A DNA stretch of 64,000 nucleotides, from positions 3,492,288 through 3,556,287 of the forward strand of contig OZ242341.1 in the NCBI GenBank assembly GCA_965208545.1, read 5' to 3'. Shown here piece by piece: positions 1 to 20,417 of this stretch. The position numbers and the translations under genes were made by a program. The notes under the pieces are model-generated. The model saw nothing but the letters and a program-made list of their open reading frames with translations. It was not told the origin of the DNA and did no database searches. This DNA comes from Candidatus Poriferisocius sp. (lineage in GTDB: Bacteria; Actinomycetota; Acidimicrobiia; Acidimicrobiales; Bin134). Within the stretch, counting starts at the first letter, position 1; every line of letters begins with the position of its first letter.

Positions 1-73
1 TCGGTGGCAATTGCGATTGTTTCCCCTTTAGGTCGTCGGTCAGATTGCTGGTGTCCAGGTCACTCGACGCTGT

Positions 74-469: not shown

Positions 470-503
470 TGGCCTTGCTCGGATGCCTTCTTTCGCCCAG
501 GTG

Positions 504-799: not shown

Positions 800-852
800 G
801 GTGCAATCGGAGCCGGCGATTGAGAAGAGAAGCAAGGGAACAGGAGGAATCA

Positions 853-1490: not shown

Positions 1491-3242
1491 ATGGAGGGTG
1501 AAGCAGCGCCCCGCAAAGCGGATCGCCGGGTTTTGGTGTGCGATGGAGTGCGGGCCGTGTTCGCCCGCCGGACGGACGGCCTGTGGAGCTTGGCGAACGA
1601 GGCGGAGTTGGCGGTGTTGGAGGGTTTGGGCGGGCCGTCGGAGCCGATTAGCCGCCTTCGGGGGATGGGGGCGGCGCTGGAGGCCGGTGTGGCGGGTCCG
1701 GGTGACATCGCCGAGCTTGGCCGCTGCCTTCGGCGTGTGGCGGCGAGCACAGAGGTGTTCGAGGCGAGGGTGCCCCCGCATCTGGCAGCAGCGGTTACGG
1801 TCGCGTGCGCGTGGTGGGACCACTACGCAGCGGCGGAGTGGCTTGGCTGGGCGGTGTCGGCGCGCCTGGAGAGCAACCTGTCGGCCGAGACGGGGGTGGG
1901 GCCGGGCTGGCTGGGCTGGGAGATCAATGCGGGGCTTCGGCCGAGAAGGGCTTGGTGGAACGGGTGTGGGTGGCTGGCGGGCCTCGGCGAAGGGTTTTGG
2001 GAGCGGCTGGCCTGCCACCGCGACGAGGCCGTGCGCCTGTCGGCCGAGGCCAGCGACCCCGACACCTCCCCGGCCCGGTTGAAAGAGATGGCGAAATGGC
2101 CGCTTTGGGAGGTCGCCGATCTGGTGTGCTCGCATCCGCGCACCCCGGCAGGGGCGTTGAAGCACCTGTGCCGGTTTCACACCCAGCATCGGCCCGTGTA
2201 CCGCACAGCGCAGAACGCCTCGGCCGACCCAGCGGTGCTGCGGTGGCTGTTCAGGGGCCGGTATCGGGGGAACTCCGGGCTGGTCGGGGATCGGGTCCTG
2301 TGGCTGTTGGCGGTGAACCCGAACACGCCCCGTGACGTTTTGGGGCGGCTGTCGCGCTCTAAGGACAGCGGCGTGTTGAGCTGGGTGGCCTGCCACCCCA
2401 ACGCCGGTCGCCGCACACTTGAGCGCCTCGCCGGGCACCCGCAATGGATTGTGCGCCGCCCCATCGCCTGGAACCCGTCCGCCCCCGACCGGCTCATCGC
2501 ATGGCTCGCCGCCGACAGGCACCGCGGAGTCCGTGCCGTGGTCGCGGAGCGCCGCGGCCTGCCCGGAGATGTGCTTGAGCAGCTGGCCGCCGACCGCAGC
2601 CTTGTGGTGCGCGCCGCCGCGGCGGCCAACCTCCAGTTGTGCGAACACATGGTGCGGCGGCTGGCCGAAGACCCCCATCCCAGGGTGCGCGCCTCCATCG
2701 CCCGCCGGACTGACGCGCCTGAAGATGTGCTGGCCGCTTTGACTGAGGACGCCGATCCCGCCGTCCGGAAGGCCTTGGGGAACAACCCGTCCGCCTCGCC
2801 CGAAGCGGTCGCTTGCCTGGCCGAAGACTCCGACCTCGGGGTGCGAAGGGCGGTATGCGCGCGCCCCGAGGTTCCCGAGGACACCATCGGGCGGTTCGCC
2901 TGTTCCGAGGACGACTGGCTGCGATGGGGCGCGGCAGCGAACACCTCCACCCCGCCCGACGTGCTCGAAGCACTGGTCGGCGACTCCGACAGCCAAGTCA
3001 AAGACGCCGCGGCCCGCAACCCGAACATCGACGAGGCCGTGCTGGAGCGCCTCGCAGCGCACCGCGACAAGTACATCCGCCACTCGGTGGTCGAGAACCC
3101 GTCGGTGCCCGACCGGCTCCTCGAAGAACTTTGCGAGGACGAATGCGCAGTCGTGTTCTCAGCAGCCGCCTACACCCTCCGCGAACGCCGCGCCCAAAAC
3201 GCTGCCCGCGAAAGAGCGGAACCGCTGGTACCTGTCGCATGA
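1491..3242 (+). CDS. Leucine-rich-repeat-variant (LRV)/HEAT-like repeat protein
   Basis: 583-aa ORF. The C-terminal half contains about eleven consecutive ~26-aa repeats of the form NP-x-(T/S/A)P-x-(D/E)-VL-x-x-LA-x-D-x-D-x-x-VR-x-A-(V/A)A. Examples: NPNTPRDVLGRLSRSKDSGV, NPSASPEAVACLAEDSDLGVRRAVCA, NPSVPDRLLEEL. Confidence 0.65.
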   Translation: MEGEAAPRKADRRVLVCDGVRAVFARRTDGLWSLANEAELAVLEGLGGPSEPISRLRGMGAALEAGVAGPGDIAELGRCLRRVAASTEVFEARVPPHLAAAVTVACAWWDHYAAAEWLGWAVSARLESNLSAETGVGPGWLGWEINAGLRPRRAWWNGCGWLAGLGEGFWERLACHRDEAVRLSAEASDPDTSPARLKEMAKWPLWEVADLVCSHPRTPAGALKHLCRFHTQHRPVYRTAQNASADPAVLRWLFRGRYRGNSGLVGDRVLWLLAVNPNTPRDVLGRLSRSKDSGVLSWVACHPNAGRRTLERLAGHPQWIVRRPIAWNPSAPDRLIAWLAADRHRGVRAVVAERRGLPGDVLEQLAADRSLVVRAAAAANLQLCEHMVRRLAEDPHPRVRASIARRTDAPEDVLAALTEDADPAVRKALGNNPSASPEAVACLAEDSDLGVRRAVCARPEVPEDTIGRFACSEDDWLRWGAAANTSTPPDVLEALVGDSDSQVKDAAARNPNIDEAVLERLAAHRDKYIRHSVVENPSVPDRLLEELCEDECAVVFSAAAYTLRERRAQNAARERAEPLVPVA

Positions 3243-3318
3243 CACGACGCAGAACGCTGTTGCCCGCAGCAGCGGGGCCAGGACACGAACGACAACCAGA
3301 TGAGGAAAGGAACAGGAC

Positions 3319-4479
3319 ATGAGCGACGAGCAAGACGAGCAACTGCCCGCAGGCGAGCTGATCGCCGAATCCCAACAGGCGGTGCTGGCCGCGATGCAGG
3401 TGCTCCTGGCAGCGAAAGTCCCGGTGCTTTTGTGGGGCGATCCAGGAACGGGCAAGACCGAGACAATCGAGCGGTACGCGGCCACAGCCGGGTGGCCAAC
3501 GACGACCGTGATCGTCTCGCTGCACGAGCCGACCGACTTCGGCGGACTGCCCGTCCGCACAGACGAAGGGGTGGTGTTCGAGCCACCCGCCTGGGCGCGC
3601 CGCGTGGCTGAGAGCCGGGAACCGCAGTTGGTGTTCTTCGACGAGGTCAACACCGCTCCGCCCGGCGTGCAGAACGCGCTGATGCGGGTCATTCTCGAAG
3701 GCCGGGTCGGCCAACTCGAGCTGGGCCAGGACGTGCGGTTCGTGGCGGCGGCAAACCCGCCCGAGCACAACATCGGCGCGTGGGACCTGTCCGCCCCCCT
3801 CGCCAGCCGCTTCGCCCACTTGAGCTGGCCCGTCTCATTGGACGAGTGGAAGCGCGGCTACCTGTCGGGCTGGCCCGACACCGGCCCGCTCGACATTCCC
3901 ATTGACGCAGCGCCGGACCCCATAGCAGTCGCCGAGCACAAAGCCACCCAGGCCGCGTTCCTCACAGCCAGGCCCGATTTGCTGTCCGCCCCTCCTCGCC
4001 AGGGGATCCCCGTGGGGGGGTTCCCCTCGCCGCGCACCTGGGAGCGCACAGCCCGCTGTTTGGCCATCGCCCACGAAGCAGCGGCCGATGAGGAGACCGA
4101 GCTGCTGGTCGCCGCCTCGCTTTTGGGAACCGGGGCCGCGGCCGAGTACCTGGCCTATGAGCACAATCTGGATCTGCCGGACACCGATCAGCTCCTCGCC
4201 GCCCCGGCCCTATTCGCCTCTTTGGAGCGCTCCGACCAGCGGCACGCCGCGCTCAGCGCGATCGTTGCCCGCGCCGCCGCCCAACCCAGCACAAGGCTGT
4301 GGAAGAAGGCTTTCAAGGTGTGCATCGCCGCGGCGCGCCAGGGAGTGCCCGACATCGCCGCAGCCGCGGCCATGCGCCTCGTCGAAATCAAACCCGCCGG
4401 AGTGGGTCTGCCCCCCGGATACGAGGTGTTCGCCGAAATCGCGGCTCAAATCCCCGTCGATAGTGACCTCGCAGCATGA
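3319..4479 (+). CDS. MoxR-like AAA+ ATPase (AAA_5/dynein-related subfamily)
   Basis: Walker A LLWGDPGTGKTE. Walker B plus sensor region QLVFFDEVNTAPPGVQNALMRVILEGRVG. The stop overlaps the next gene's start (ATGA at 4476-4479). Confidence 0.85.
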   Translation: MSDEQDEQLPAGELIAESQQAVLAAMQVLLAAKVPVLLWGDPGTGKTETIERYAATAGWPTTTVIVSLHEPTDFGGLPVRTDEGVVFEPPAWARRVAESREPQLVFFDEVNTAPPGVQNALMRVILEGRVGQLELGQDVRFVAAANPPEHNIGAWDLSAPLASRFAHLSWPVSLDEWKRGYLSGWPDTGPLDIPIDAAPDPIAVAEHKATQAAFLTARPDLLSAPPRQGIPVGGFPSPRTWERTARCLAIAHEAAADEETELLVAASLLGTGAAAEYLAYEHNLDLPDTDQLLAAPALFASLERSDQRHAALSAIVARAAAQPSTRLWKKAFKVCIAAARQGVPDIAAAAAMRLVEIKPAGVGLPPGYEVFAEIAAQIPVDSDLAA

Positions 4480-5789
4480 CCGCCCAATCCCCGACTCCTC
4501 ATCTCGGCCCCCAACTCGGACGGAGCGGCACGGACACGGAGGGCCGCCAGAAAGTGGCAGCGGCGAGGCTGTGGATCGCCCGGCACCGCCCCTACTATTC
4601 GGCCGCGCTGTTCTCCTGCCCGCTGCTGTTCACCGACCAGGCCGACACGTTCGCCATCGACGAAAAATGGCGCATTCACGTCAATCCGTCCGTCGCCGCC
4701 TCCCTCAGCGTCGAAGAGGCCGCCGGCTCGCTCGCGCACGAGCTGAACCACGCCCTTCGCGGCCATCTCGAGCGGGGCCGCCGCGCCGATGTTCCCATCG
4801 AACTGCACACGGTCTGGAACCTCGCGGCGGACTGCGAGATCAACAACGACCTTCGCGCCGACGACTTCCCCCTGCCACTCAAAGTCGTCTATCCGGAGGA
4901 CTACAGCCTGCCGCCATCAAAGATCACCGAGACCTACTACCGGCTCCTCCTCCAAAGCGCCGAAACCATCGAAATCCCCGCCATCTGCTGCCACTCGGCC
5001 ACCACCGGCCACGACATGCCGCACCCCCAGCCCGGCCTCAGCGCAGCCAGAAGACAACACCTTCGCCGCACGACCGCCCAGGCGATCCTAGACCACCAAA
5101 ACCAGCACGGCTGGGGGTCGACCCCCGGTGGACTCACCCGGTGGGCCGAACACACCGCCGTCCCGACCGCCGACTGGCGGCGCATCCTCGCCGCCGAACT
5201 GCGACGCGGCATCCAACGCCAACCCGGAACAGGCCACTGGACCTACACCCGCCCGCCACGCCGCCCCCAAAACGGCCCCATCATCGCACCCGGAACCAAC
5301 CAGCCCGCAGCCGATATCGCCGTTATTATCGACACCTCCGCCTCAATGCGCGGAACGGACCTCCAACAAGCCCTCGCCGAGACTCAAGCCGTCCTAAAGC
5401 ACACCGGCGGCCAGCACCCCATCACAGTCCACACCCACGACACCAAAACCCACACCACACAACACATCATCAACGCCAACAGAATCGAACTCGCCGGAGG
5501 AGGCGGCACCGACATGGCCGCCGCCATCCACACAGCCGCAGCCATACGACCCCAGCCCGCCGTGGTCATCGTCATCACCGACGGCTACACCCCCTGGCCC
5601 CCCACCAGACCACCCGGCAGCAACGCCACCGTCATCGCCGTCCTCACAAAACCACAAACTGTCCAACACGTCCCCGACTGGATCACTATCATCACCGCAA
5701 CCGCCCCCGGCCCATTGGCCCTCGATTGCCAGAAGGCAGGTTCAAGACGCTCAGGCCAAGCTCTGCCCCCTCAGAGAGGTTTATCTTAA
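4476..5789 (+). CDS. Putative metallopeptidase (DUF2201_N-like, HExxH) fused to a vWA domain
   Basis: N-terminal LAHELNHALRGH (HExxH). C-terminal MIDAS elements are AVIIDTSASMRG (DxSxS), GGGGTD and VITDGY. The gene is translationally coupled to the MoxR gene. Confidence 0.8.
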   Translation: MTAQSPTPHLGPQLGRSGTDTEGRQKVAAARLWIARHRPYYSAALFSCPLLFTDQADTFAIDEKWRIHVNPSVAASLSVEEAAGSLAHELNHALRGHLERGRRADVPIELHTVWNLAADCEINNDLRADDFPLPLKVVYPEDYSLPPSKITETYYRLLLQSAETIEIPAICCHSATTGHDMPHPQPGLSAARRQHLRRTTAQAILDHQNQHGWGSTPGGLTRWAEHTAVPTADWRRILAAELRRGIQRQPGTGHWTYTRPPRRPQNGPIIAPGTNQPAADIAVIIDTSASMRGTDLQQALAETQAVLKHTGGQHPITVHTHDTKTHTTQHIINANRIELAGGGGTDMAAAIHTAAAIRPQPAVVIVITDGYTPWPPTRPPGSNATVIAVLTKPQTVQHVPDWITIITATAPGPLALDCQKAGSRRSGQALPPQRGLS

Positions 5790-6130
5790 CGCGCCCTTCG
5801 GGCCATCAGCGCCGTTCAAGTCCCGCCATGGCGCAAGCGCCTGACTCAACAGGGCTCGGGCATCGGCCGAATTTCTTCGGAAACCTCCCGCACCAGCGCA
5901 GCGTCATTGCAAGAGCGCCAAGCCATCTGCAGATTTGGTGCCCCAAGGCACGCCGAAGCGAGAATCTCTCCATTTGCCGGTCAACTCGATGAGCCGAGCC
6001 GCCTGCCGGAACTTGACTACTAGCCTGCGCCTAGGGCCTGGCGTGGGTGCTATAGCCGACCAGTGGTGCCATTCATAACCCTGGTCACCGCGGCGCGAGC
6101 GCGCCCACAGATTTCTCATAGCATAACAAC

Positions 6131-6152
6131 AGTGGTAACAAAAGTGGTAACA
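6131..6152. repeat. Two 10-bp direct repeats (AGTGGTAACA) with 12-bp period, next to the tRNA 3' end
   Basis: AGTGGTAACA occurs at 6131-6140 and 6143-6152, about 45 bp from the tRNA-Sec 3' end, in an AT-richer non-coding stretch. Confidence 0.5.
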
Positions 6153-6196
6153 GAAAGCCAACAGACATATATAAGTCCAGGTCACAAGCCTTTACG

Positions 6197-6292
6197 TGGC
6201 GGAGGTGGACGGGAATCGAACCCGCCGGACGGGGATCGCCCGTCCCACCCGCTTTGAAGGCGGGGGAGCCCACCAGGTACTCAGACACCTCC
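6197..6292 (-). tRNA. selC: tRNA-Sec (anticodon UCA), with encoded CCA
   Basis: The reverse complement reads GGAGGTG..CCCGC-CTTCAAA-GCGGG..GGACGGG-CGATC-CCCGTCC..GCGGG-TTCGATT-CCCGT-C-CACCTCC-G-CCA. It has a 7-bp acceptor stem and a 7-nt anticodon loop with U33 and anticodon TCA, the same CTTCAAA loop as E. coli selC. It also has a 7-bp long variable arm, a canonical TTCGATT T-loop and a total length of 96 nt. Confidence 0.75.
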
Positions 6293-6341
6293 CAGGAAGT
6301 GGTCAGCCTACTGCCGTTCGACTTGGTCGGCCCAGGCTTGC

Positions 6342-7898
6342 CTAGCCCACTACCGCCGCGCCCTCCGGCTCGCCCACGCCGCTCATCAGCAGGCCCACCT
6401 GCTCTACGGTGGCATCGGCCCGGTCTACTCGGCCCATCACCGATCCCTCATACATAACTACCAGTCGGTCCGACAGGGCCATCACTTCGTCTAGATCTTC
6501 ACTGATCAACAAGATGGCCTTGCCTTGCGTACGCTGGGTGATCAGCTGCTCGTGGATGTACTCGGCTGCGCCGATGTCGATGCCCCGGGTGGGCTGGGCC
6601 ACCAGCAGCATCTCGGCATTGCCGCTGAACTCCCGAGCGATCACCACCTTCTGGATGTTGCCCCCCGACAGCTTGCGGGTGAGGGTGCTGGTGTTTGGCG
6701 TGCGAATCGAATAATCGCTCACCAGTTGCTTGCCGCGGGTCTCGATGGAGCTAAGGCTCAACAGTCCGTACCGCGCATAAGGCTGCTGGTCGTAGTCCGC
6801 CAAGATCAGGTTCTCGGCCACAGTGAAGTCGCCGATGCTGCCGTACTTCATGCGCTCTTCGGGTACATAGGCCAGGCCCATCGACCGCACCTGCTTGGGA
6901 GTGGGGGTTTTCACCGGATGGCCGTCGATAGAGACTTCGCCCGACTCGATCTCCCGCAGCCCGACGATGGCCTCGGCCAATTCTCGCTGCCCGTTGCCCG
7001 ACACTCCTACGATGCCCACGATCTCACCGGCCCGCACGTCGATGTTCACATCGCGTACCGCCAGCTCCTCCCGGTCGCCCCTAACCCGGAGATTCTTCAC
7101 CTCCAGTTTGGGATCGCCCGGTTCCTGTTCGGCAAGGGTGCGGGTGAATTCCACCGGGCGTCCCACCATCATCATGGCCAGCGACTCCCTGCTGGATTCT
7201 GCCGGGGTGGTGCGCCCCGAGACCTTGCCGTCACGCAGCACCGTGATCTCGTCAGAGATCTCCATCACCTCGTTCAGCTTGTGGGAGATGAACACCAGTC
7301 CTCTTCCATCGGAGCTGAGCTGTCGGAGGGTGACGAATAAATCGGAAACCTCGGGCGGGGTCAGCACCGCGGTGGGCTCGTCCAGCACCAGCAGTCTCAC
7401 GTTTCGGTACAACGCCTTAACGATCTCGGCCCGCTGCCGCTCTCCGACCGCCATCTGCCAGATATAGGCATCGGGATCGACGTGCAGGCCGAACTCCTCA
7501 GATACTTCTCGGATGCGTCTACGAATCGGCTGGAGGTTGGTCAGACTGAGCGGAGTGCCCAGCCCCAGGGCCACGTTCTCGGCCACGGTCAGGGTGTCCA
7601 CCAACATGAAATGCTGGTGAATCATGCCGATGCCGGTCTGAATCGCCACTGAAGGTGAATCAATGTTCACCGGCGTGCCGTCGAAGGCGATCGATCCCTC
7701 GTCGGGCTGGTAGAGCCCATAGAGGATCTTCACCAGCGTGCTCTTGCCCGCTCCGTTCTCCCCCAGAAGGGTATGAACCTGACCCGGCAGCACCGTGAAG
7801 TCAACGTCTTCGTTGGCCACCACGCCGGGGAAGCGCTTGGTAATACCGCGCATCTCCAGCATCGGTGCTGGCCTCGGCGCTGCCGAGTCAGTATTCAT
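6342..7898 (-). CDS. ABC transporter ATP-binding protein, duplicated-ATPase type (BMP/sugar-nucleoside class)
   Basis: Two nucleotide-binding domains are present. Walker A motifs are GENGAGKST and GVSGNGQRE. Signature motifs are LAVGERQRAEI and LSGGNIQKVVIA. Walker B motifs are LLVLDEPT and LLVAQPTRGID. Confidence 0.9.
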   Translation of the reverse strand: MNTDSAAPRPAPMLEMRGITKRFPGVVANEDVDFTVLPGQVHTLLGENGAGKSTLVKILYGLYQPDEGSIAFDGTPVNIDSPSVAIQTGIGMIHQHFMLVDTLTVAENVALGLGTPLSLTNLQPIRRRIREVSEEFGLHVDPDAYIWQMAVGERQRAEIVKALYRNVRLLVLDEPTAVLTPPEVSDLFVTLRQLSSDGRGLVFISHKLNEVMEISDEITVLRDGKVSGRTTPAESSRESLAMMMVGRPVEFTRTLAEQEPGDPKLEVKNLRVRGDREELAVRDVNIDVRAGEIVGIVGVSGNGQRELAEAIVGLREIESGEVSIDGHPVKTPTPKQVRSMGLAYVPEERMKYGSIGDFTVAENLILADYDQQPYARYGLLSLSSIETRGKQLVSDYSIRTPNTSTLTRKLSGGNIQKVVIAREFSGNAEMLLVAQPTRGIDIGAAEYIHEQLITQRTQGKAILLISEDLDEVMALSDRLVVMYEGSVMGRVDRADATVEQVGLLMSGVGEPEGAAVVG

Positions 7899-7919
7899 AC
7901 CTTGCTATTCGGCTGAGCG

Positions 7920-9998
7920 TTACTGCCCAGTGGAGATTGACCCGTCGGACAGGCCGGCGATCGTCGCCTCGGCTGAGGCCAGCACGTCGGCGGGGATGTC
8001 CATGGCGTCGTTGAACTGGATCTCCAGTCCTCCGCCATCGAAGGTCATGATGAAGGTAGTGCCACCCAAGGTTCCGCCCTTCACCTGGTCGACCACCTCA
8101 GAGAGGATGACCTCCCAGCGGTACACCTGCGAGGCCACCACGATGTCATCGCCAAGTGCGGTCTGGTTGGCCTGGGTGCCGAACCACAGCACGCCGTTCT
8201 CCTGAGCCACTCCGGTGGCGCCCACCACCATCTGGGCCGAACCGGTCAGCACGTCGGCGCCGGCGGAGATGTGCGATTGGGCAGCTTCCGCGGCCAGCGC
8301 TACGTCGGCAAATGAACCGGTGTAGACGATGTTGACCTCGACGTCGGGATTCTGCGCCGTGGCACCGGCGGCGAACCCGTCGACATAGAGCTTGGCGTCG
8401 CCCACCTCTATCGGGCCGATCACGCCGATCACGTTGCTCTCTGTGAGCTGAGCGGCCACTACGCCGTTGACGTAGCCACCGAGATCGGAGCGAACCGAGT
8501 AGGAGTTCACGTTGGGAAGACCGAAGGTGTCGACCGCGGTCCCCCAAGCGAACGATACATCGGGGAAGTCCGGAGCGATCTCCTGGAGCGGGCCGCCGTA
8601 CTGGGAGCCGTGGGCGATGACCAGGTCGTAGCCATCTTCGGCATAGCCCCGAATTGCTGCGCCCGCATCTTCCACGATGAATGTGCCGTCGGTGATGGCA
8701 AATTCGCTGATGTCCCCAGAAGCCAATAGGGCATTCACCGCGTCGAACATGCTCTGGGTGAATGCCAGGTCGTTGCTCGCGCTCGGTGCCACTACCGCCA
8801 CACGGAACGGTGCCGGCGGTGCCGGCGGGGGCGGGGGCGTGTAACTGGTCGCGGCCCGGGCTTCGGCGAGCCATGCGTCGACGGTGTCGCGGTTGTCGGC
8901 GATCCACTCGGCGGCGTGGCGGTTGACATCAGCGGTGGTGTTCTCACCGCCGGTGTCGTAGCGCGCGTTCTGCAGTGCGATGTCAACCACGCTGATCTTC
9001 ACCTGCTCCAGCAGCGTCGCCGCCGCCGGGTTCTCGACAAGGAAGTCGTTGTTGGCCGTCACCTGGATGTCAGCGGTAATGAGGAGGTTGCACGGATCAT
9101 CTGTGCAGACATCGGTGCCGAGCAGGGTGGGCGCACCCCCGTCTATCGACAGCCACATGGCCTGGTCACCAGGCCCGATGTGGTTCGTATAGAAGCTCGG
9201 GCTCCACGTGTACGCGATGAACGGGGTGCCGCTGCCAGCGCGGTCGACTGCGTCGGCGAAAGTGGCGTCGTAGCCGCCCACCTCGACCTGCTGGACCCTG
9301 CCGGTCCAACCCTTGTCTTCAATCAGGCCCGCAATGAACAGGTTGCATCCCCAACCGTCGGGGCACCCATAAATCTGGAGCACCCCATCACCGGGCTCAA
9401 TGTCGGCCGCCTCGTACAGCTCGAACAGATCCTCGTCACCCACGAGCTGATCAAGAGTTCTGATGCCGTGCTCTTCCACCAGCGACTTGTTGGTCAACAA
9501 GCCCTCGATGCCGCCGCGCTCAGCCTCAAGGCCCACCTTCGACACGTGATCGCTCACCAAAGAGCCATCGGGCATCTCGCCCGCAATGAACGGGTCGTGG
9601 TTCGGATACCAAGAATTGGCCCAGAAATCGAACTCGCGCTCAGCCATAGCCACGTACGCGTTCGAAGGCGCAAGCTCAATATCCGCAGGCTCGCTCACGT
9701 CATAGCCCAGCTCCTCCAACAGATGGTGATAGATAGCCGCCTGGAAATAGCCAGTGCTCCAGTTCGCCCGAGCCATCGTCACACTGACACCCTCACCAGG
9801 CGTCATATTCACCTCATCAGCCGCCGGAGCATCATCAGCCGCCGGAGCATCCTCCGCCGGGGCGTCATCAGCCGCCGGAGCATCCTCCGCCGGCGCAGCC
9901 CCCGGCTCGTCATCGTCATCATTGCCACAAGCAGCAACAACCAGCCCGAAGACCAGAAAAATAGCTAGCAAAACTCTCCAAAGGTTTCGCTCTCTCAT
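7920..9998 (-). CDS. Chimeric lipoprotein: OpuAC/ProX-type betaine-binding domain fused by a poly-Pro linker to a BMP-family (PnrA-like) binding domain
   Basis: Signal peptide plus lipobox LVVAAC-GNDDDD. An Ala/Asp/Pro linker follows, then a 331-aa OpuAC-like unit (ARANWSTGYFQAAIYHHLLEELGY...FWANSWYPNH). Next is the linker TSYTPPPPPAPPAP, then a BMP-like domain (FRVAVVAPSASNDLAFTQSM...GVIGPIEVGDAKLYVDGF...). Confidence 0.85.
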   Translation of the reverse strand: MRERNLWRVLLAIFLVFGLVVAACGNDDDDEPGAAPAEDAPAADDAPAEDAPAADDAPAADEVNMTPGEGVSVTMARANWSTGYFQAAIYHHLLEELGYDVSEPADIELAPSNAYVAMAEREFDFWANSWYPNHDPFIAGEMPDGSLVSDHVSKVGLEAERGGIEGLLTNKSLVEEHGIRTLDQLVGDEDLFELYEAADIEPGDGVLQIYGCPDGWGCNLFIAGLIEDKGWTGRVQQVEVGGYDATFADAVDRAGSGTPFIAYTWSPSFYTNHIGPGDQAMWLSIDGGAPTLLGTDVCTDDPCNLLITADIQVTANNDFLVENPAAATLLEQVKISVVDIALQNARYDTGGENTTADVNRHAAEWIADNRDTVDAWLAEARAATSYTPPPPPAPPAPFRVAVVAPSASNDLAFTQSMFDAVNALLASGDISEFAITDGTFIVEDAGAAIRGYAEDGYDLVIAHGSQYGGPLQEIAPDFPDVSFAWGTAVDTFGLPNVNSYSVRSDLGGYVNGVVAAQLTESNVIGVIGPIEVGDAKLYVDGFAAGATAQNPDVEVNIVYTGSFADVALAAEAAQSHISAGADVLTGSAQMVVGATGVAQENGVLWFGTQANQTALGDDIVVASQVYRWEVILSEVVDQVKGGTLGGTTFIMTFDGGGLEIQFNDAMDIPADVLASAEATIAGLSDGSISTGQ
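8851..9943. repeat. Copy A of the ~1-kb identical repeat (OpuAC-domain unit plus N-terminal linker)
   Basis: 8851-9815 matches 11372-12336 at offset 2521. 8857-9943 matches 12371-13457 at offset 3514. No nucleotide differences were noticed, and sense and antisense ORF translations are identical. Confidence 0.9.
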
Positions 9999-10206
9999 TG
10001 GTAACCCTCCAATTTAAGTCAAGCTTGGCCCGCCTCAGCGCGCGCCAACCCGCCTAGGGGCCACACCCTAAACCAAACCAGGCTTGAACGCTAGAGACTC
10101 CAAGAAGAACGTTCCAGACTGATACGGGGTCCGTTCCTGCTCCTCGTTAGGGGAGCGCGACCAATTCCTGAACGGCCGACTGGGCCTTTTGTGGTAGAAG
10201 TCGTTC

Positions 10207-11235
10207 ATGACGATCGCTTCCGAACAAGCTGCCGCCCGCACCTCCTCCCGGTCAGACGAGCAGCGGCTCATGGACGGGATCTACTGGTATGGCATTCCGA
10301 CGCTGTTCCGCTGCGAGTACGACCCCGACCCCCAAAACGCCGACATCGCCCTTGTGGGCGTGCCCCATAGCACCGGCAACGGCACGACCCAGCGCGACCA
10401 ACATCTTGGCCCCCGGGCCGTGCGGGACGTCTCAGCCATCGGCAGGCGGGTCCACGGCCAGTTCGGCATCGATCCGTGGGAGATGTGCCGCATCAACGAT
10501 CTGGGCGATGTGCCGTTGTCGGAGGGCAACAACAACGAGCGCTCCATCGAGATGATCACCGATTTCTACCGGTCGATCGACGAAGCCGGGGCGCGGCCGG
10601 TGTCCATCGGCGGCGACCATTCCATCACCGGGGGCATCCTGCAGGCCATCGGTGGCCATGAGGCCAACCTCACCGGAGGCGAGCGGGCCTGCCTGCTGCA
10701 CTTCGACGCCCACACCGACGCCTTTCACAACATCCCCCACTTCATGGGAGCCATCAAGTCGGCCGCCCACTGGGCCAGCTATCTGGTTACCGACGGCCAC
10801 GTCGACGCCGAGCACAGCGTGCAGGTCGGCATTCGGGGCAACACTCGCAGCCTCGACTGGCTCGAGCCCAGCTACGCGCTCGGTTACGAGGTGATCAAGA
10901 AGTCCGACTACGACCAAATGGGCGCCGAGAGGGTGATCGAGACCATCCACGAACGCATCGGCGACCGGCCGGTGTACATCACATTCGATCTCGACTGCCT
11001 CGACCCGACGGTGGCACCGGGCGTGGCCAATATCGAGGCCGGCATCGACGGCTTCGGGATGGACCAGGCCATGGAGCTCATCCGCTCGATGCGGGGCCGC
11101 AACGTGATCGGCGGCGACGTGGTATGCCTGATGCCGACGGTGGACTCACCCAACCAGATCACCAGCTACCGCTCGATGTCGGTGATGTTTGAGATCCTCA
11201 GCCTGATTGCCGACCGAAACTTCAACCGTCCTTAA
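10207..11235 (+). CDS. Ureohydrolase (arginase/agmatinase/guanidino-acid hydrolase family)
   Basis: Mn-binding motifs are LHFDAHTDA, GGDHSITGGILQA and ITFDLDCLDP, with GGDVVCLMP near the C-terminus. Confidence 0.85.
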   Translation: MTIASEQAAARTSSRSDEQRLMDGIYWYGIPTLFRCEYDPDPQNADIALVGVPHSTGNGTTQRDQHLGPRAVRDVSAIGRRVHGQFGIDPWEMCRINDLGDVPLSEGNNNERSIEMITDFYRSIDEAGARPVSIGGDHSITGGILQAIGGHEANLTGGERACLLHFDAHTDAFHNIPHFMGAIKSAAHWASYLVTDGHVDAEHSVQVGIRGNTRSLDWLEPSYALGYEVIKKSDYDQMGAERVIETIHERIGDRPVYITFDLDCLDPTVAPGVANIEAGIDGFGMDQAMELIRSMRGRNVIGGDVVCLMPTVDSPNQITSYRSMSVMFEILSLIADRNFNRP

Positions 11236-11291
11236 GCTTCCGCATTCACTCCCGCAGGCGTGCCTACCAATCCCACGCTTCCGCACGCGGT

Positions 11292-11319
11292 GAGGGGCGG
11301 GGCCAAAGCCCCGCCCCTC
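11292..11319. terminator. Bidirectional GC-rich hairpin terminator between convergent genes
   Basis: GAGGGGCGGGGC-CAAA-GCCCCGCCCCTC forms a perfect 12-bp stem with a 4-nt loop. It lies between the ureohydrolase stop (11235) and the SBP stop (11365). There is no clear T-tract. Confidence 0.55.
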
Positions 11320-11364
11320 CTTCGTCCTTCAAGCCCTAAGGCCTGATTTCGAGCGCTTGAAACG

Positions 11365-13524
11365 TCAGCCTGCGGCCCGGGCTTCGGCGAGCCATGCGTC
11401 GACGGTGTCGCGGTTGTCGGCGATCCACTCGGCGGCGTGGCGGTTGACATCAGCGGTGGTGTTCTCACCGCCGGTGTCGTAGCGCGCGTTCTGCAGTGCG
11501 ATGTCAACCACGCTGATCTTCACCTGCTCCAGCAGCGTCGCCGCCGCCGGGTTCTCGACAAGGAAGTCGTTGTTGGCCGTCACCTGGATGTCAGCGGTAA
11601 TGAGGAGGTTGCACGGATCATCTGTGCAGACATCGGTGCCGAGCAGGGTGGGCGCACCCCCGTCTATCGACAGCCACATGGCCTGGTCACCAGGCCCGAT
11701 GTGGTTCGTATAGAAGCTCGGGCTCCACGTGTACGCGATGAACGGGGTGCCGCTGCCAGCGCGGTCGACTGCGTCGGCGAAAGTGGCGTCGTAGCCGCCC
11801 ACCTCGACCTGCTGGACCCTGCCGGTCCAACCCTTGTCTTCAATCAGGCCCGCAATGAACAGGTTGCATCCCCAACCGTCGGGGCACCCATAAATCTGGA
11901 GCACCCCATCACCGGGCTCAATGTCGGCCGCCTCGTACAGCTCGAACAGATCCTCGTCACCCACGAGCTGATCAAGAGTTCTGATGCCGTGCTCTTCCAC
12001 CAGCGACTTGTTGGTCAACAAGCCCTCGATGCCGCCGCGCTCAGCCTCAAGGCCCACCTTCGACACGTGATCGCTCACCAAAGAGCCATCGGGCATCTCG
12101 CCCGCAATGAACGGGTCGTGGTTCGGATACCAAGAATTGGCCCAGAAATCGAACTCGCGCTCAGCCATAGCCACGTACGCGTTCGAAGGCGCAAGCTCAA
12201 TATCCGCAGGCTCGCTCACGTCATAGCCCAGCTCCTCCAACAGATGGTGATAGATAGCCGCCTGGAAATAGCCAGTGCTCCAGTTCGCCCGAGCCATCGT
12301 CACACTGACACCCTCACCAGGCGTCATATTCACCTCGACAGCCTCGGGAGGCACCCAGGGTCCGGCGACGCGGGCTTCGGCGAGCCATGCGTCGACGGTG
12401 TCGCGGTTGTCGGCGATCCACTCGGCGGCGTGGCGGTTGACATCAGCGGTGGTGTTCTCACCGCCGGTGTCGTAGCGCGCGTTCTGCAGTGCGATGTCAA
12501 CCACGCTGATCTTCACCTGCTCCAGCAGCGTCGCCGCCGCCGGGTTCTCGACAAGGAAGTCGTTGTTGGCCGTCACCTGGATGTCAGCGGTAATGAGGAG
12601 GTTGCACGGATCATCTGTGCAGACATCGGTGCCGAGCAGGGTGGGCGCACCCCCGTCTATCGACAGCCACATGGCCTGGTCACCAGGCCCGATGTGGTTC
12701 GTATAGAAGCTCGGGCTCCACGTGTACGCGATGAACGGGGTGCCGCTGCCAGCGCGGTCGACTGCGTCGGCGAAAGTGGCGTCGTAGCCGCCCACCTCGA
12801 CCTGCTGGACCCTGCCGGTCCAACCCTTGTCTTCAATCAGGCCCGCAATGAACAGGTTGCATCCCCAACCGTCGGGGCACCCATAAATCTGGAGCACCCC
12901 ATCACCGGGCTCAATGTCGGCCGCCTCGTACAGCTCGAACAGATCCTCGTCACCCACGAGCTGATCAAGAGTTCTGATGCCGTGCTCTTCCACCAGCGAC
13001 TTGTTGGTCAACAAGCCCTCGATGCCGCCGCGCTCAGCCTCAAGGCCCACCTTCGACACGTGATCGCTCACCAAAGAGCCATCGGGCATCTCGCCCGCAA
13101 TGAACGGGTCGTGGTTCGGATACCAAGAATTGGCCCAGAAATCGAACTCGCGCTCAGCCATAGCCACGTACGCGTTCGAAGGCGCAAGCTCAATATCCGC
13201 AGGCTCGCTCACGTCATAGCCCAGCTCCTCCAACAGATGGTGATAGATAGCCGCCTGGAAATAGCCAGTGCTCCAGTTCGCCCGAGCCATCGTCACACTG
13301 ACACCCTCACCAGGCGTCATATTCACCTCATCAGCCGCCGGAGCATCATCAGCCGCCGGAGCATCCTCCGCCGGGGCGTCATCAGCCGCCGGAGCATCCT
13401 CCGCCGGCGCAGCCCCCGGCTCGTCATCGTCATCATTGCCACAAGCAGCAACAACCAAAGCAATTGCTGCAAACAGTGCAAACCAAACCTTCCAATGCTT
13501 CTTCATAAGCATTTTTCCCTCCAT
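11365..13524 (-). CDS. Lipoprotein with two tandem, identical OpuAC/ProX-type betaine-binding domains
   Basis: Signal peptide plus lipobox LVVAAC-GNDDDD. The 331-aa unit EVNMTPGEGVSVTMARANW...DAWLAEAR is then present twice in frame, with a 993-bp period. Confidence 0.85.
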   Translation of the reverse strand: MEGKMLMKKHWKVWFALFAAIALVVAACGNDDDDEPGAAPAEDAPAADDAPAEDAPAADDAPAADEVNMTPGEGVSVTMARANWSTGYFQAAIYHHLLEELGYDVSEPADIELAPSNAYVAMAEREFDFWANSWYPNHDPFIAGEMPDGSLVSDHVSKVGLEAERGGIEGLLTNKSLVEEHGIRTLDQLVGDEDLFELYEAADIEPGDGVLQIYGCPDGWGCNLFIAGLIEDKGWTGRVQQVEVGGYDATFADAVDRAGSGTPFIAYTWSPSFYTNHIGPGDQAMWLSIDGGAPTLLGTDVCTDDPCNLLITADIQVTANNDFLVENPAAATLLEQVKISVVDIALQNARYDTGGENTTADVNRHAAEWIADNRDTVDAWLAEARVAGPWVPPEAVEVNMTPGEGVSVTMARANWSTGYFQAAIYHHLLEELGYDVSEPADIELAPSNAYVAMAEREFDFWANSWYPNHDPFIAGEMPDGSLVSDHVSKVGLEAERGGIEGLLTNKSLVEEHGIRTLDQLVGDEDLFELYEAADIEPGDGVLQIYGCPDGWGCNLFIAGLIEDKGWTGRVQQVEVGGYDATFADAVDRAGSGTPFIAYTWSPSFYTNHIGPGDQAMWLSIDGGAPTLLGTDVCTDDPCNLLITADIQVTANNDFLVENPAAATLLEQVKISVVDIALQNARYDTGGENTTADVNRHAAEWIADNRDTVDAWLAEARAAG
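11372..12336. repeat. Copy B of the identical repeat (C-terminal domain of the tandem SBP)
   Basis: See copy A. The junction with copy C is the 34-bp unique segment 12337-12370. Confidence 0.9.
12371..13457. repeat. Copy C of the identical repeat (N-terminal domain plus linker of the tandem SBP)
   Basis: See copy A. Identity with copy A extends through the Ala/Asp/Pro linker and lipobox and stops inside the signal peptide. Confidence 0.9.
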
Positions 13525-13614
13525 AGTTGTTTTCTCCCGCCAACGGAGAAATGCCTGAAGCTGGCAATCAGAACGCTAGTTGAATGGTCCCAAGGTCACA
13601 AGAGCCGCCCCGGT

Positions 13615-15936
13615 TTACCCGATGTCGGCCGTTGCTCCTTCCGGCTCATCGACAGAGACATACACCTGTGATCGACCGAATTTCGTCAGCACACCGGCCG
13701 TGCTCGCCATGAGGAGGAACCCCGCGACCAGGCAAATGAACGCTCCTGCGCCGCTAGCGAACTTGAGATCGGCCACCCTGAGCAGCGACGCGATCCACGC
13801 CGACGCCACAACCATCAGACTGACGCCGACGCCTGCAACCACTGCGTTCCAGCGCCGTCGCCTTTGCTCATTGCCACCGAAGACCCCGGCAGCAGGTAGC
13901 ACACAGGCGATGCCGACGATGCCGAAGGCGATAGCGAGATATCCATACTTGCTGCTGTCGCCAGCAAAGCCGTCAATGACGATCTTCTCGGTCCGTTGAG
14001 CCTCGCTGTACAGTGCGATGATCTCTTGAGCTATACGAGCTTCGACTGCTGGATCATCGGTATTCTCTGCTTGCTGCTCCAGAGCCGAAACTTGTGCCTG
14101 AAGCTCTGGTGAGACAACGGACTCGACGCGCTGATCGAAGGACCATCCCGAGAACCCAGCTATGACAATCAGCGCCGCAACAAGAGCAACCACACCGATT
14201 TGACGGTACGAAACGCCAGCTCTCAGCGGGGTGCGGGCTGCATAGGGTGCCTCCCTAAGCCAGGCCAGTGCGCCCAGGGTCGCTACCACCCCGCCCACAA
14301 TGGCGACCCAAGGACCGACTCCCATGCTATGTGTGACGTTGGCCGATGCTGCCGGCGCCCAGACATAGGCGATCGCCGCAGCCAGGGACCCAACGGCAAG
14401 CACTGCGACACCATTTGACCCAAACAGGCGAATATCTCCGCCTGGTCGTCTCAGATTGGTCACAACCGCAGCAAGGATCAACAAGGCGAAGCCGAGCACC
14501 ATGATGCCGTAGAAGGATCCACCGGTTGCATCCAAACCACGGAAGCTACGGCCTGCTAGAGGATTGGAAAGCAGCGCGATCTCATCCCCAATTTCTGCAA
14601 TGACCGCGAGTGTCTCTTCGTCCGTCACCCCCTCAGCCCCCGCCGCGACGATCACGGCATTTATCTGGGCATCGAGCACGGCAATCTCTTGGGCATGTTC
14701 GACGGGCGGGTCGACACTCGCTTCCTGAAGCTCGACCATCCCAGGGGACCTCACGGGGTCAACCTCGACGTACTCGTATCGCCCGGTGTCAATCAACCTG
14801 GCATAACCGGAAATCCTTCCCGAGTCACTCCCCCATGGCAAGAACACGGCAACAACAGCAACGAGTGCGCCGGCGGCGACGATTGCCAAGAAGCGGCGCT
14901 CGGCGGCCGACAGTGGAGCCGGGTGGCTTCTCGTCTTGGCCACGACGCCGATCGACGATGCCTGAGGAAGCAGTGCCTCGGGATCGCGACGATGGGCCCA
15001 GGCCCGGCGGATGCGTGTTAAGAGGTTTTGGCCATCACTCTCCTCAGTTTGAGAGATGCGGTCGAGCACCACTGCAACCATGAACAGAGCCAGACCGCTT
15101 GAAGCGGCTAGAGCAACGTCTAGTGCCTGCACCGCCCGAAAAACCTGCAAGCCCAATCCGCCCGCACCCATGATGGCCGCGATGCCCAGCATGGAGATAG
15201 ACAAAAGCAACGTCTGGTTTAGTCCGGTCATGATCGCGGGACGCGCCAGTGGAAGCTGGACATCTAGCAGCACGCGCCACTCGGGGGCCCCGTAGGCCCG
15301 ACTGGCCTCCACTACATCCGCGGGAACCTGTCTGACTCCAAGGTTGGTGAGACGAATTAGCGGCGGGAGGGCAAACACCATGGTGACCATCGTGGCCGGT
15401 TCGGTACCGATACCGAAGAAGAAGATGACCGGCAGCATGTACACAAACGCATGGACAACCTGCATCGCGTCGAGCACAGGTCGCACGGCATTCCACACTC
15501 CATCGAATCGGCCACAAAGGACACCGAGGGGAATGCCGATAAGGGCGCAGAGTGCGACGGCGACAATGATCATGCCCACTGTCAGCGCTGTGTCATCCCA
15601 GTATTCAATGCCGAGCAGTCCGCAGCCAGCCAACGCCAACGCGACGAACCCGCCGACCTTCACGTTGCGGGCCAGCGTGCCGATCACGAAAAAGATGAGG
15701 CAAACCGCGATCCACGGCATGTCGGTGATCTCCCACCAAGGATGGTGATCTGGGCTATCGACAAAGTTGCGGAACAGGAAAGTAAATGGCCACTCGATGA
15801 TGTCGAGCAGCCAGCCGAGGTTGAGGTCGATCCAGTTGACCATCTGCTTGACCCATTCGCCGAACGGAATCGTCCACTGGTCGAGGACCTCGTTGTCGGC
15901 AATACCGGGGGACTCCGACTGGGCCAGCAGGCTCAC
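13615..15936 (-). CDS. proW: ProW/OpuAB-type ABC permease with a ~440-aa C-terminal multi-TM extension
   Basis: The permease core is ...GIPLGVLCGRFDGVWNAVRPVLDAMQVVHAFVYMLPVIFFFGIG...EASRAYGAPEWRVLLDVQLPLARPAIMTG.... The likely GTG start at 15936 overlaps the proV stop (GTGA). The ORF-track start at 16044 lies inside proV. Confidence 0.8.
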   Translation of the reverse strand: MSLLAQSESPGIADNEVLDQWTIPFGEWVKQMVNWIDLNLGWLLDIIEWPFTFLFRNFVDSPDHHPWWEITDMPWIAVCLIFFVIGTLARNVKVGGFVALALAGCGLLGIEYWDDTALTVGMIIVAVALCALIGIPLGVLCGRFDGVWNAVRPVLDAMQVVHAFVYMLPVIFFFGIGTEPATMVTMVFALPPLIRLTNLGVRQVPADVVEASRAYGAPEWRVLLDVQLPLARPAIMTGLNQTLLLSISMLGIAAIMGAGGLGLQVFRAVQALDVALAASSGLALFMVAVVLDRISQTEESDGQNLLTRIRRAWAHRRDPEALLPQASSIGVVAKTRSHPAPLSAAERRFLAIVAAGALVAVVAVFLPWGSDSGRISGYARLIDTGRYEYVEVDPVRSPGMVELQEASVDPPVEHAQEIAVLDAQINAVIVAAGAEGVTDEETLAVIAEIGDEIALLSNPLAGRSFRGLDATGGSFYGIMVLGFALLILAAVVTNLRRPGGDIRLFGSNGVAVLAVGSLAAAIAYVWAPAASANVTHSMGVGPWVAIVGGVVATLGALAWLREAPYAARTPLRAGVSYRQIGVVALVAALIVIAGFSGWSFDQRVESVVSPELQAQVSALEQQAENTDDPAVEARIAQEIIALYSEAQRTEKIVIDGFAGDSSKYGYLAIAFGIVGIACVLPAAGVFGGNEQRRRRWNAVVAGVGVSLMVVASAWIASLLRVADLKFASGAGAFICLVAGFLLMASTAGVLTKFGRSQVYVSVDEPEGATADIG

Positions 15937-17177
15937 AGGAATACCTCTCTCTCGAAACCATCGATCAGGTTCTCGACCCGGCCCATTTCTTCCATGATGT
16001 GACGGGGGTCGAGATTCCCGACCAGCACACCCGACTCGTCGCACACCGCGATTGAAAGGCCGCGGCCAGCGGCGGCGTATACCTCGTTGAGGCGGTCGTC
16101 GGGGCCGCAGCGCTCGAAGTCGGTGCGAAGCGCACGAGCCAGATCAGTGGTACCCATGCTGGCAGCCCGGGCCGCGTCTTCGACTGTCAACAGATGGGTG
16201 GGCGCACCTGCGGCATCTAGCACGAACGCACCGATGCGGTCACCCATAGCACTGAGGGCCTCGGCGATGGTGGCACTGGCGGCAACGGGTGCCGGCACTT
16301 GCATGACCTCGTGTACCTGGATGACGCGGCCTTGGTCGACATCCTGCACAAACTCAGCCACATACCCGGTGGCCGGCTCAGTGAGGATCTCCTCGGGCGT
16401 GCCGATCTGCACGACGGCACCGTCCTTCATGATGCACACCCGATCGCCAATGCGCAATGCTTCGTTGAGGTCGTGGGTGATGAACAGGATGGTTTTGTGA
16501 AGCTCGCTCTGGATCTCCAGAAGCTCGTCCTGCATCTGACGGCGGATCAACGGGTCGAGAGCACTGAAGGCTTCGTCCATCAGCAGTATTTCAGGGTCCG
16601 AGGCCAGCGCTCGGGCCAGGCCGACCCGCTGCTGCATCCCGCCGGAGAGCTCGGCCGGCCTGTTCTGCGAATAGGCGTCTAGGCCGACCAACGCCAAAGC
16701 CCGCATGGCCGATTCGTTGCGGACGGCCTTGTCCACGCCCTGGACTTTGAGGCCGTAGCTCACGTTGTCGATGACGTTGCGGTGCGGGAACAGTGCGAAG
16801 TGCTGGAACACCATCCCCATCTGGCTCCTGCGGAAAGCCTGAAGCTCTGAACCTTCGAGAGACTGCACGTCGATGCCCTCGACTGTGACGGTGCCCGCAG
16901 TGATGTCGTGAAGCTTGTTGACGGTGCGAATGGCGGTGGACTTGCCCGATCCGGACAAGCCCATTACGACGAAAATCTCGCCCCTGGGCACCGAGAAAGA
17001 CACGTTGTCGAGGCCGACCACATGTCCGGTCTCGGCCTGAACTTCGTCTTTGCCCATCCCTGAGCTGGCCAGTTCAAAAGCTCGGCCGCCGGGCTGAGGA
17101 CCGAAAATCTTGTAGACGCCGTCCAGGACGATGATGTCATCGCCCACCTGTGCCATAGGACTCCTCCCGCCAGCCAA
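15933..17177 (-). CDS. proV: Glycine betaine/proline-type ABC transporter ATP-binding protein with C-terminal CBS region
   Basis: Walker A GLSGSGKST, signature LSGGMQQRVGLARAL, Walker B ILLMDEAFSALD. The ~130-aa C-terminal tail is typical of ProV/OpuAA. Confidence 0.9.
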   Translation of the reverse strand: MAGGRSPMAQVGDDIIVLDGVYKIFGPQPGGRAFELASSGMGKDEVQAETGHVVGLDNVSFSVPRGEIFVVMGLSGSGKSTAIRTVNKLHDITAGTVTVEGIDVQSLEGSELQAFRRSQMGMVFQHFALFPHRNVIDNVSYGLKVQGVDKAVRNESAMRALALVGLDAYSQNRPAELSGGMQQRVGLARALASDPEILLMDEAFSALDPLIRRQMQDELLEIQSELHKTILFITHDLNEALRIGDRVCIMKDGAVVQIGTPEEILTEPATGYVAEFVQDVDQGRVIQVHEVMQVPAPVAASATIAEALSAMGDRIGAFVLDAAGAPTHLLTVEDAARAASMGTTDLARALRTDFERCGPDDRLNEVYAAAGRGLSIAVCDESGVLVGNLDPRHIMEEMGRVENLIDGFEREVFL

Positions 17178-20415: not shown

Positions 20416-20417
20416 GG

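Follow-up and report, generated by a model that had tools for sequence, protein, structure and literature searches.

Here, we identify three identical copies of a ∼1-kb segment encoding an OpuAC/ProX-type substrate-binding domain, hereafter the unit, in two neighbouring lipoprotein genes of the sponge-associated Candidatus Poriferisocius sp. (Actinomycetota; Acidimicrobiia; Acidimicrobiales). Both genes lie in a stretch of 64,000 nucleotides (nt) of contig OZ242341.1 (assembly GCA_965208545.1, positions 3,492,288 to 3,556,287 of the forward strand), which we refer to as the window and whose positions are counted from its first letter. Gene 2 encodes a lipoprotein with two units in tandem (U-U), and gene 1 encodes a lipoprotein in which one unit is fused to a Bmp/PnrA-type domain (U-Bmp). 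We consider it highly probable that the copies are real, that the two-gene layout is ancient, and that the identity of the copies results from long-lasting concerted evolution via gene conversion and unequal crossing-over.

Three identical units in two lipoprotein genes

An earlier note, made from the window sequence alone, had described three ∼1-kb copies with 100% identity, and exact comparison upholds this description. In a base-by-base comparison, positions 8851-9815 equal 11372-12336 (965 nt, 0 mismatches) and 8857-9943 equal 12371-13457 (1087 nt, 0 mismatches). The segment common to copies A, B and C (8857-9815, 959 nt) is identical in all three, and beyond both repeat limits similarity is at once at random level. 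All three copies are carried by the minus strand. A repeat search of the window gave start-to-start spacings of 2521 and 993 nt and no inverted repeats. Copies B and C lie in frame in a single open reading frame (ORF), that of gene 2, where the period of 993 nt equals 331 codons, just as the earlier note had it. In a BLAST comparison of the whole window against itself, a check that the note had proposed, only two repeat families emerged, i.e., the OpuAC units at ∼100% identity and three sulfatase genes at 84-86% DNA identity; thus, the sulfatase paralogues have diverged as the note had noticed, unlike the units, among which exact alignment revealed no missed divergence. Chance cannot give three perfect matches of ∼1 kb.

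Gene 2 (11365-13524, minus strand, 719 amino acids) contains two OpuAC stretches (E = 1.7e-58, 198.7 bits). Its product begins with a signal peptide, the lipobox LVVAAC and an acidic Ala/Pro/Asp linker, followed by unit C, the linker VAGPWVPPEAV, unit B and the tail AAG*. By homology, the methionine of MLMKKHW at 13512 is the more likely start. Copy C (12371-13457, minus strand) comprises the first unit together with the acidic linker and lipobox (13330-13457), and copy B (11372-12336, minus strand) comprises the second, C-terminal unit, the translation ending in ...WLAEARAAG*. They are separated by a unique, in-frame junction of 34 nt (12337-12370, minus strand), which encodes the Pro-rich linker (R)VAGPWVPPEAV. 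Gene 1 (7920-9998, minus strand, 692 amino acids) has its own signal peptide (MRERNLWRVLLAIFLVFGLVVAAC), which differs from that of gene 2, then a lipobox and acidic linker like those of gene 2, unit A, a PPPPPAPPAP linker and the Bmp/PnrA-type domain. Copy A (8851-9943, minus strand) consists of the unit (core 8857-9815; PF04069 at residues 72-367, E = 3e-28) and the upstream acidic linker and lipobox (9816-9943). The lipobox is identical in the two genes; upon inspection, both read ...LVVAAC followed by GNDDDD, which fits the lipobox pattern [LVI][ASTVI][GAS]C. The Bmp/PnrA-type substrate-binding domain (7923-8813, minus strand; PF02608 at Pfam residues 399-661, E = 1.5e-37) is present in a single copy and is not repeated. 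It weakly matches a model for a putative B6 ABC transporter substrate-binding protein (SBP), at 82 bits far under the cut-off of 400. The acidic linkers (9814-9921 and 13328-13435) are built of 18-nt and 33-nt microrepeats encoding (A/E)PA(A/E)DD-like motifs, and the length and motif of this linker differ strongly among genomes.

Pfam assigns PF04069 (OpuAC) to every copy; in gene 1, the match reaches 99.6 bits against a cut-off of 21.2 and covers profile positions 2-256 of 257. The alignment to Escherichia coli ProX (1R9L, E = 6e-32) extends over the entire unit. With ProX residue numbers counted from this alignment, Trp65, Trp140 and Trp188 as well as the motif GCxxGWGC (Cys136-x5-Cys142) of ProX align to identical, conserved residues of the unit. 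The three Trp residues form what we take to be the aromatic (Trp) box that holds the quaternary ammonium head group. The NCBIfam ProX equivalog model NF008334 gives 203.3 bits, under its cut-off of 215. By these alignments, the unit is ProX-like yet below the ProX equivalog call, and its predicted ligand class is a betaine-like quaternary-ammonium solute.

Relatives of the two genes

A protein search with gene 2 gave 594 matches, and architectures were read in the best 120. Among these best 120, 56 were U-U, 42 U, 17 U-Bmp, two U-U-Bmp and one Bmp-U-U; they come from metagenome-assembled genomes (MAGs) of Acidimicrobiia wherever the source is named, and no tandem protein among them exceeds 67% identity to gene 2. 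In ∼60 tandem homologues that are 40-68% identical to the window unit, the two domains are mutually 85-100% identical in nearly every protein. For comparison at the DNA level, we used 77 loci from species-representative genomes and two syntenic loci found by exact protein look-up, cited below by L numbers. The record titles of the relatives name sponge-symbiont lineages, e.g., Ca. Poriferisocius and Spongiisociaceae.

The gene order of L002 is that of the window, namely sulfatase, DUF6576 protein, ATPase, permease, U-U gene, U-Bmp gene and two-cassette ATPase. Its units are 65% identical to those of the window in protein, and its own three units are 100/100/100 identical to one another in DNA. 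The layout of two units plus one (2+1) also occurs in L015, L006, L012 and L008, with copies that are 89-100% identical. More widely, many Acidimicrobiia MAGs have the two-gene layout with units that share 45-70% identity with the window unit yet match one another almost or quite completely inside each genome. A comparison of copy number with relatives, as the earlier note had suggested, therefore reveals that the 2+1 layout is old and conserved and that one-unit and fused variants are present beside it. In the MAG RHO1_bin_22, two contigs (L041 and L045) both carry three-unit loci with units 100% identical across the contigs, which may reflect strain redundancy or a large duplication.

Evidence that unit interiors evolve in concert

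Several lines of evidence support concerted evolution of the units, which were delimited by a hidden Markov model (HMM) in all tests. First, tandem pairs in ∼40 genomes are 85-100% identical in DNA, whereas other nearby single-domain paralogues are 70-77% identical. Second, the median identity at third codon positions is 96% within tandem pairs compared to 50% between genomes. Because the identity within pairs extends to synonymous sites, selection at the protein level cannot explain the identity of the units. Third, edges and interiors have different nearest relatives. In a codon alignment of 37 tandem genes with 74 units, the interior was nearest to its own partner in 67 units (median identity of own pairs, 99.9%), while the 5' edge (the first 12-14 codons) was nearest to the matching position in another genome in 62 of the 74 and the 3' edge (the last 16 codons) in 54 of the 74. 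An ungapped comparison of edges and interiors was discarded in favour of the codon alignment because interior indels distorted its result. Interiors group by genome; at the unit edges and in signal peptides, linkers and tails, by contrast, sequences from different genomes group according to position. For instance, in one subclade, unit 1 ends in '...TVDVWLAIAR-VP-VDETPG' and unit 2 in '...LADSWLRAAR-LTG*', repeatedly across genomes.

Fourth, individual loci contain mosaic tracts. In L008, units 1 and 3 differ at two positions in nt 0-240 where units 2 and 3 differ at 17; in nt 300-570, units 2 and 3 differ at two positions and units 1 and 3 at 22. In L006 and L012, unit 1 equals unit 3 and unit 2 differs throughout (95% identity in L006). 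Fifth, identical runs are longer than in all 500 permutations in most pairs (L008, L006, L049, L047), and homogenisation of three copies is also found in L002, L015, L006 and L012. In the closely related genomes L025/L030 and L007/L008, whole units keep positional orthology, which is expected if conversion is episodic. Between the window core and the L001 unit there are 48 differences in 953 sites, compared to none among the three window copies. Assuming a simple clock and a star tree, this would place the last homogenisation in the window roughly within the last ∼4% of the window-L001 divergence time (95% Poisson bound).

Weighing the alternatives

Some observations weigh against concerted evolution as the explanation for the three copies, or limit its reach. 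The GC content at third codon positions (GC3) of the units is 0.78, which is not above that of their neighbours, and there is no signature of GC-biased conversion. Some distant tandem proteins have domains that are only 50-72% identical, showing that homogenisation is not universal. Recombination is read from the pattern of the sequences, and no event was seen directly. For the window, the assembly and the analogy with relatives are the basis for the copy number and the perfect identity, and short-read de Bruijn assemblies can manufacture identity through bubble-popping and loop traversal, for which reason only long-read genomes count fully. Finally, the close relatives L001 and L004 have one unit only and lack the tandem gene, and the inter-unit linker VAGPWVPPEAV of the window is not clearly homologous to the linkers of relatives. 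Because of the latter, unit B and the junction could have been re-created in the window lineage by unequal crossing-over rather than simply converted.

The one-unit relatives, the unlike linker and the zero differences among the copies would also suit a very recent one-off duplication, occurring twice and in the window genome only, that left young copies of the OpuAC segment with no ongoing conversion. We regard such a history as improbable in light of the flanks of the units. The upstream DNA of gene 2, its signal peptide (MLMKKHWKVW...) and its tail EARAAG* are kept in L002, L006, L008, L012, L015 and L017, and the signal peptide of gene 1 (MRERNLWRVLL...) and its linker (...ATEYT...PFRVA) are likewise conserved in these relatives. 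These conserved ends, upstream DNA and linker indicate that both window genes are orthologues of old genes. More specifically, the upstream DNA, signal peptide, tail and downstream DNA of gene 2 are orthologous to those of tandem genes whose units are ∼65-70% identical to those of the window. The 2+1 layout with near-identical copies in L002, L006, L008, L012 and L015 also speaks against a duplication confined to the window, and the position-specific edges in 37 genomes would call for matching fresh junctions in each lineage, which is not credible. The closest relative found (L081/L082), which also has three sulfatases and matches window 25951-13175 collinearly (92.7% nt identity over 12.8 kb), already has the tandem-type gene start, and its short-read contigs end within the first unit, after 144 nt (k = 141) and ∼57 nt. 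Such breaks are the classic signature of a high-identity repeat, and several other short-read contigs also end at the unit. The earlier note had proposed very recent duplication or ongoing gene conversion. The part on conversion is borne out by the interiors, which group by genome, while recent duplication fails as the origin of the layout given the orthologous ends, linkers and upstream DNA.

A further alternative is an artefact of assembly or polishing, by which a repeat was unrolled or real differences were erased and the true locus has fewer or less identical copies. The ability of short-read graph assemblers to create perfect identity lends itself to this explanation, as do the libraries of the sponge sequencing project, which can be ultra-low-input HiFi libraries amplified by polymerase chain reaction (PCR), and the related contig L080, which is clearly suspect. 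L080 ('ctg51003_0x_c', positions 1-12427; 12.4 kb, circular, 0x) contains nothing but ∼12.7 tandem OpuAC units, mostly out of frame, which repeat every 980/981 nt. An artefact of the assembler or of PCR is the probable explanation, a real amplified array being less likely, and the contig was left out of the analysis. We nevertheless judge an artefact in the window to be unlikely, and a little more so than a recent duplication. Every copy has distinct, in-frame and biologically sensible flanks that are orthologous to those in other genomes, the window's copy number and junctions are those of the conserved 2+1 layout, and dozens of independent assemblies, from long as well as short reads, show the pattern too. 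Among 28 tandem genes classed as long-read from record names and Mb-scale contigs, interiors have 0-140 mismatches over ∼810 nt, with zero in 13 of the 28; thus, differences are retained where present rather than systematically erased. Moreover, assemblers tend to collapse identical repeats rather than expand them. According to its genome notes, the sponge sequencing project used HiFi libraries of ∼10 kb and the assembler metaMDBG. The contig names of L001 and L002 fit metaMDBG, and the window itself presumably derives from HiFi-type data, in which case the 4.6-kb region would fit within single reads of ∼10 kb. Searches for the exact sequences of genes 1 and 2 gave no match and, therefore, no independent copy of this very locus; a 40-mer across the junction of copies C and B had no match among metagenome contigs of the Joint Genome Institute (JGI).

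Selection on the sequence alone, whether extreme purifying selection on the protein or on an overlapping nucleotide function, would dispense with recombination. In its favour, the domain is functional and conserved, codon positions 1 and 2 being more conserved between genomes than position 3. Yet orthologues differ at about half of the third positions at which paralogues are identical, no RNA family or stable structure was found, and units differ by 30-55% in protein between genomes, indicating that no single sequence is required. We give this explanation very little credence. Least plausible of all is a unit that acts as a mobile cassette inserting into binding-protein genes, for although the architectures U, U-U, U-Bmp, U-U-Bmp and Bmp-U-U might suggest it, inverted repeats are lacking, the locus ORFs examined include no transposase, integrase or reverse transcriptase, and the copies are in frame at domain boundaries with all occurrences in one syntenic locus.

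Rearranged relatives and a model for homogenisation

The earlier note had also suggested that the locus can expand, contract and shuffle SBP domains, and relatives with one unit, with a chimeric U-Bmp, with U-U-Bmp or with Bmp-U-U support this. The number of units per tandem gene varies between species, i.e., one in L017 compared to two elsewhere; the one-unit gene of L017 is of the tandem type and has a unit-1-type 5' end and a unit-2-type tail. In L004, L011 and probably L014, the tandem-type signal peptide stands ahead of U-Bmp, as would be expected if unit 1 had recombined with the unit of the fusion gene. An exchange involving unit 2 and the fusion unit would account for the U-U-Bmp proteins. 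In L002, the fusion gene bears a copied tandem-type signal peptide and upstream DNA. Two candidates for rearranged alleles were rejected. L001, which has U-Bmp only, is not the simple product of a deletion between copies C and A, since it retains the fusion-type signal peptide and upstream DNA, and P0001/L080, the only array with more than two units, does not count as evidence for alleles of three or more units, being the 0x-coverage 'circular' array that is mostly out of frame and looks like an artefact. In two Spongiisociaceae loci (L069, 7080-11441, and L074, 7083-12694), Bmp lies directly upstream of an OpuAC unit and is followed by a U-U pair, the reverse of the order in the window, and the units are only 85-93% identical.

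We suggest that a betaine-type solute is bound by three equivalent ProX-like domains, carried on two lipid-anchored proteins, and passed to one OpuA/ProU-type translocator, and that a different transporter, with no permease encoded nearby, presumably uses the Bmp half of gene 1. RecA-dependent recombination acts efficiently on direct repeats of kilobase length that are separated by a few tens to thousands of bases. At this locus, homologous recombination between such repeats would overwrite the copies far faster than point mutations build up, taking the form of non-reciprocal gene conversion and unequal crossing-over and presumably depending on RecA. Conversion and unequal exchange would remove new mutations, and the resulting identity would in turn sustain efficient recombination, such that a pair drifting past a few per cent might escape conversion. 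Such an escape fits the bimodal distribution of interior mismatches, with many pairs at 0-2 and others at 40-140, as well as the distant domains that are 50-72% identical. The same recombination could occasionally make rearranged alleles, i.e., one unit, a chimera of tandem-type signal peptide with U-Bmp, or U-U-Bmp. Units 1 and 3 are often the most similar pair (L006, L012, L015), and their extra homology, which consists of the upstream lipobox and acidic linker and sometimes the downstream ATEF linker, may favour conversion between them. That two units persist in ∼40 species although such repeats are prone to deletion implies that selection favours lipoproteins with more than one binding domain.

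A more far-reaching possibility, which we put forward only tentatively and regard as doubtful, is that the identity is not a mere side effect of recombination. For avidity or cooperativity, the transporter would require at least two strictly equivalent domains per lipid anchor at its OpuA-like translocator with the unusual 430-amino-acid extension. The locus would then be a recombinational 'accordion' that, in populations of sponge symbionts, reversibly yields alleles of one, two or three domains, with or without Bmp, and so tunes uptake of host-derived betaine-type solutes. If so, few bacterial examples of concerted evolution at the domain level would be deeper or cleaner.

Transporter neighbourhood

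Two genes for an ABC importer precede genes 2 and 1 on the minus strand. The first (15933-17177, minus strand) encodes a ProV/OpuAA-type ABC ATPase with a CBS domain (Pfam ABC_tran and CBS), which scores 348.8 bits with the proV subfamily model TIGR01186, above the cut-off of 326.6. The second (13615-15936, minus strand) encodes a ProW/OpuABC-type permease of 773 amino acids, and its GTG start overlaps the stop codon of the ATPase gene. The permease matches the ChoW and ProW models at E = 4e-69 and 3e-65, respectively, under their equivalog cut-offs. Its modelled transmembrane part matches the OpuA permease of Lactococcus lactis (7AHC, E = 2.9e-9, 31% identity). The permease has a C-terminal extension of ∼430 amino acids (residues ∼340-773) with several extra transmembrane helices and long helical or small beta-sheet loops, and this extension is kept in more than 100 Acidimicrobiia permeases of 685-790 amino acids. 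It has no match in Pfam or NCBIfam and no significant fold match in the PDB, though the model is confident there (predicted local distance difference test (pLDDT), 80-95).

Immediately downstream of gene 1 lies a gene for a two-cassette ABC ATPase of the sugar/nucleoside type, the partner type of Bmp (6342-7898, minus strand), which is syntenic in L001, L002, L004, L006 and L017. Neither the scanned ORFs of the window nor the L001 and L002 flanks encode a BPD_transp_2 permease, and the Bmp domain and the two-cassette ATPase appear to be orphan parts of a second ABC system. Just downstream of this ATPase gene is a selenocysteine tRNA gene (6201-6292, minus strand; Rfam RF01852, 67.5 bits), which is 96.6% conserved in L017.

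Between copies B and A, and on the plus strand, lies a gene for an arginase/agmatinase-family ureohydrolase (10207-11235; PF00491, E = 1.5e-59; agmatinase models below cut-offs). It is missing at the matching position in L001, L002, L006 and L014; L004 has an agmatinase-family gene that is 90% identical in DNA to that of the window, but downstream of its U-Bmp gene. Flanked as it is by direct repeats, the gene would be deleted by recombination between copies B and A or C and A.

The intergenic region upstream of gene 2 (13525-13614, minus strand) contains a promoter-like TTGTGA-17 nt-TAGCGT and the Shine-Dalgarno sequence GGAGGG. This leader of ∼90 nt has long invariant runs across eight genomes in which coding DNA is only 70-75% identical. 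The invariant parts are GGCTCTTGTG, ACTAGCGTTC and TTTCTCC...CGGGAGAAA, and CTAGCGTTC of the leader recurs upstream of gene 1 (∼10085-10100). By inspection, the leader looks like a promoter; a consensus scan did not call one. An RNA element in the leader was considered but found no support, there being no Rfam match and no stable fold (z 0.18).

Other features of the window

The three tandem sulfatase genes (18142-25039, minus strand; Sulfatase and SGSH_C, 757-781 amino acids), whose DNA identity is given above, show no homogenisation. Relatives have one (L002), two (L001) or three (L081) sulfatase copies. Genes of the type found in origin regions lie at 52710-64000, including parB (52710-53651, minus strand), dnaN (59940-61049), recF (61030-62142) and gyrB (62506 onward), and GC content falls to 0.53 at 58-60 kb. 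Should the origin lie here, ∼45-50 kb would separate it from the repeat locus. A stretch of low GC content (0.516 at 38-40 kb) adjoins an ORF for a 1007-amino-acid ResIII-type helicase/restriction-like protein (40141-43164), and window positions 38001-43164 may represent an island.

Significance and comparison with known systems

The locus provides a clean and replicated natural experiment in which dozens of species have kept a complete domain of 320 amino acids identical, both inside one gene and from one gene to the next, while edges and flanks keep their history. The rate of conversion, the length of tracts, the divergence threshold at which conversion fails and the selection on copy number are all measurable from existing long-read metagenomes. 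For transport biology, two identical betaine-type binding domains per lipoprotein and an OpuAC-Bmp hybrid represent an unstudied architecture, which bears on the question of why some ABC importers use several binding domains. On the practical side, the repeats account for the breaking of short-read MAGs of sponge symbionts at this locus. In the literature searched, we found no report of tandem identical OpuAC lipoproteins, OpuAC-Bmp fusions or concerted evolution of binding domains.

Concerted evolution in prokaryotes is also known from tuf and ribosomal RNA operons. Long-lasting concerted evolution of prokaryotic paralogues by gene conversion has been described for 26 genes and as rare and noteworthy (Wang & Chen 2018, PMC6053082). 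As in those cases, paralogues within a genome are closer than orthologues, even at synonymous sites; this holds repeatedly among deeply diverged lineages, and recombination is inferred to drive it. By contrast, the converted unit here is a domain that resides in one gene and in a differently fused neighbouring gene, and its edges escape in a position-specific manner. The terms 'ABC transporter' and 'binding protein' are absent from the text of PMC6053082.

The architecture can be compared with that of GlnPQ of L. lactis and other Gram-positive bacteria, in which binding domains that differ in specificity and affinity are fused to the permease (PMC8025302). The two systems share two complete substrate-binding domains in series per polypeptide that are tethered outside the membrane and feed a type I ABC importer. 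They differ in that the domains described here are identical, are of the OpuAC/ProX class and reside on a separate lipid-anchored protein, with the permease encoded by its own gene; the system is not a member of the GlnPQ group. With OpuA of L. lactis and ProU of E. coli, the locus shares a ProV-type ATPase with CBS, a ProW/OpuABC-type permease and a ProX-like domain with a Trp box. Unlike OpuA and ProU, it has U-U and U-Bmp lipoproteins and a permease with a 430-amino-acid extension of no known relative, and its ligand is predicted. Similar to Bmp/PnrA lipoproteins (PF02608), the C-terminal half of gene 1 matches this family and is followed by a matching two-cassette ATPase; unlike in Bmp/PnrA systems, it is fused behind an unrelated OpuAC domain, and the cognate BPD_transp_2 permease is missing from the ORFs and flanks scanned.

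Surface proteins of Gram-positive bacteria such as alpha C/Rib and SasG/Aap contain in-frame tandem repeats that are identical in DNA, homogenised by recombination and changeable in copy number. These repeats are small structural modules, present in many copies and tied to antigenic or length variation. By contrast, the repeat described here is a ligand-binding domain of 320 amino acids, usually present in two copies with one more in the next gene. Altogether, the process is a known one, and the locus is an unusually clean new example of it and not a new mechanism.

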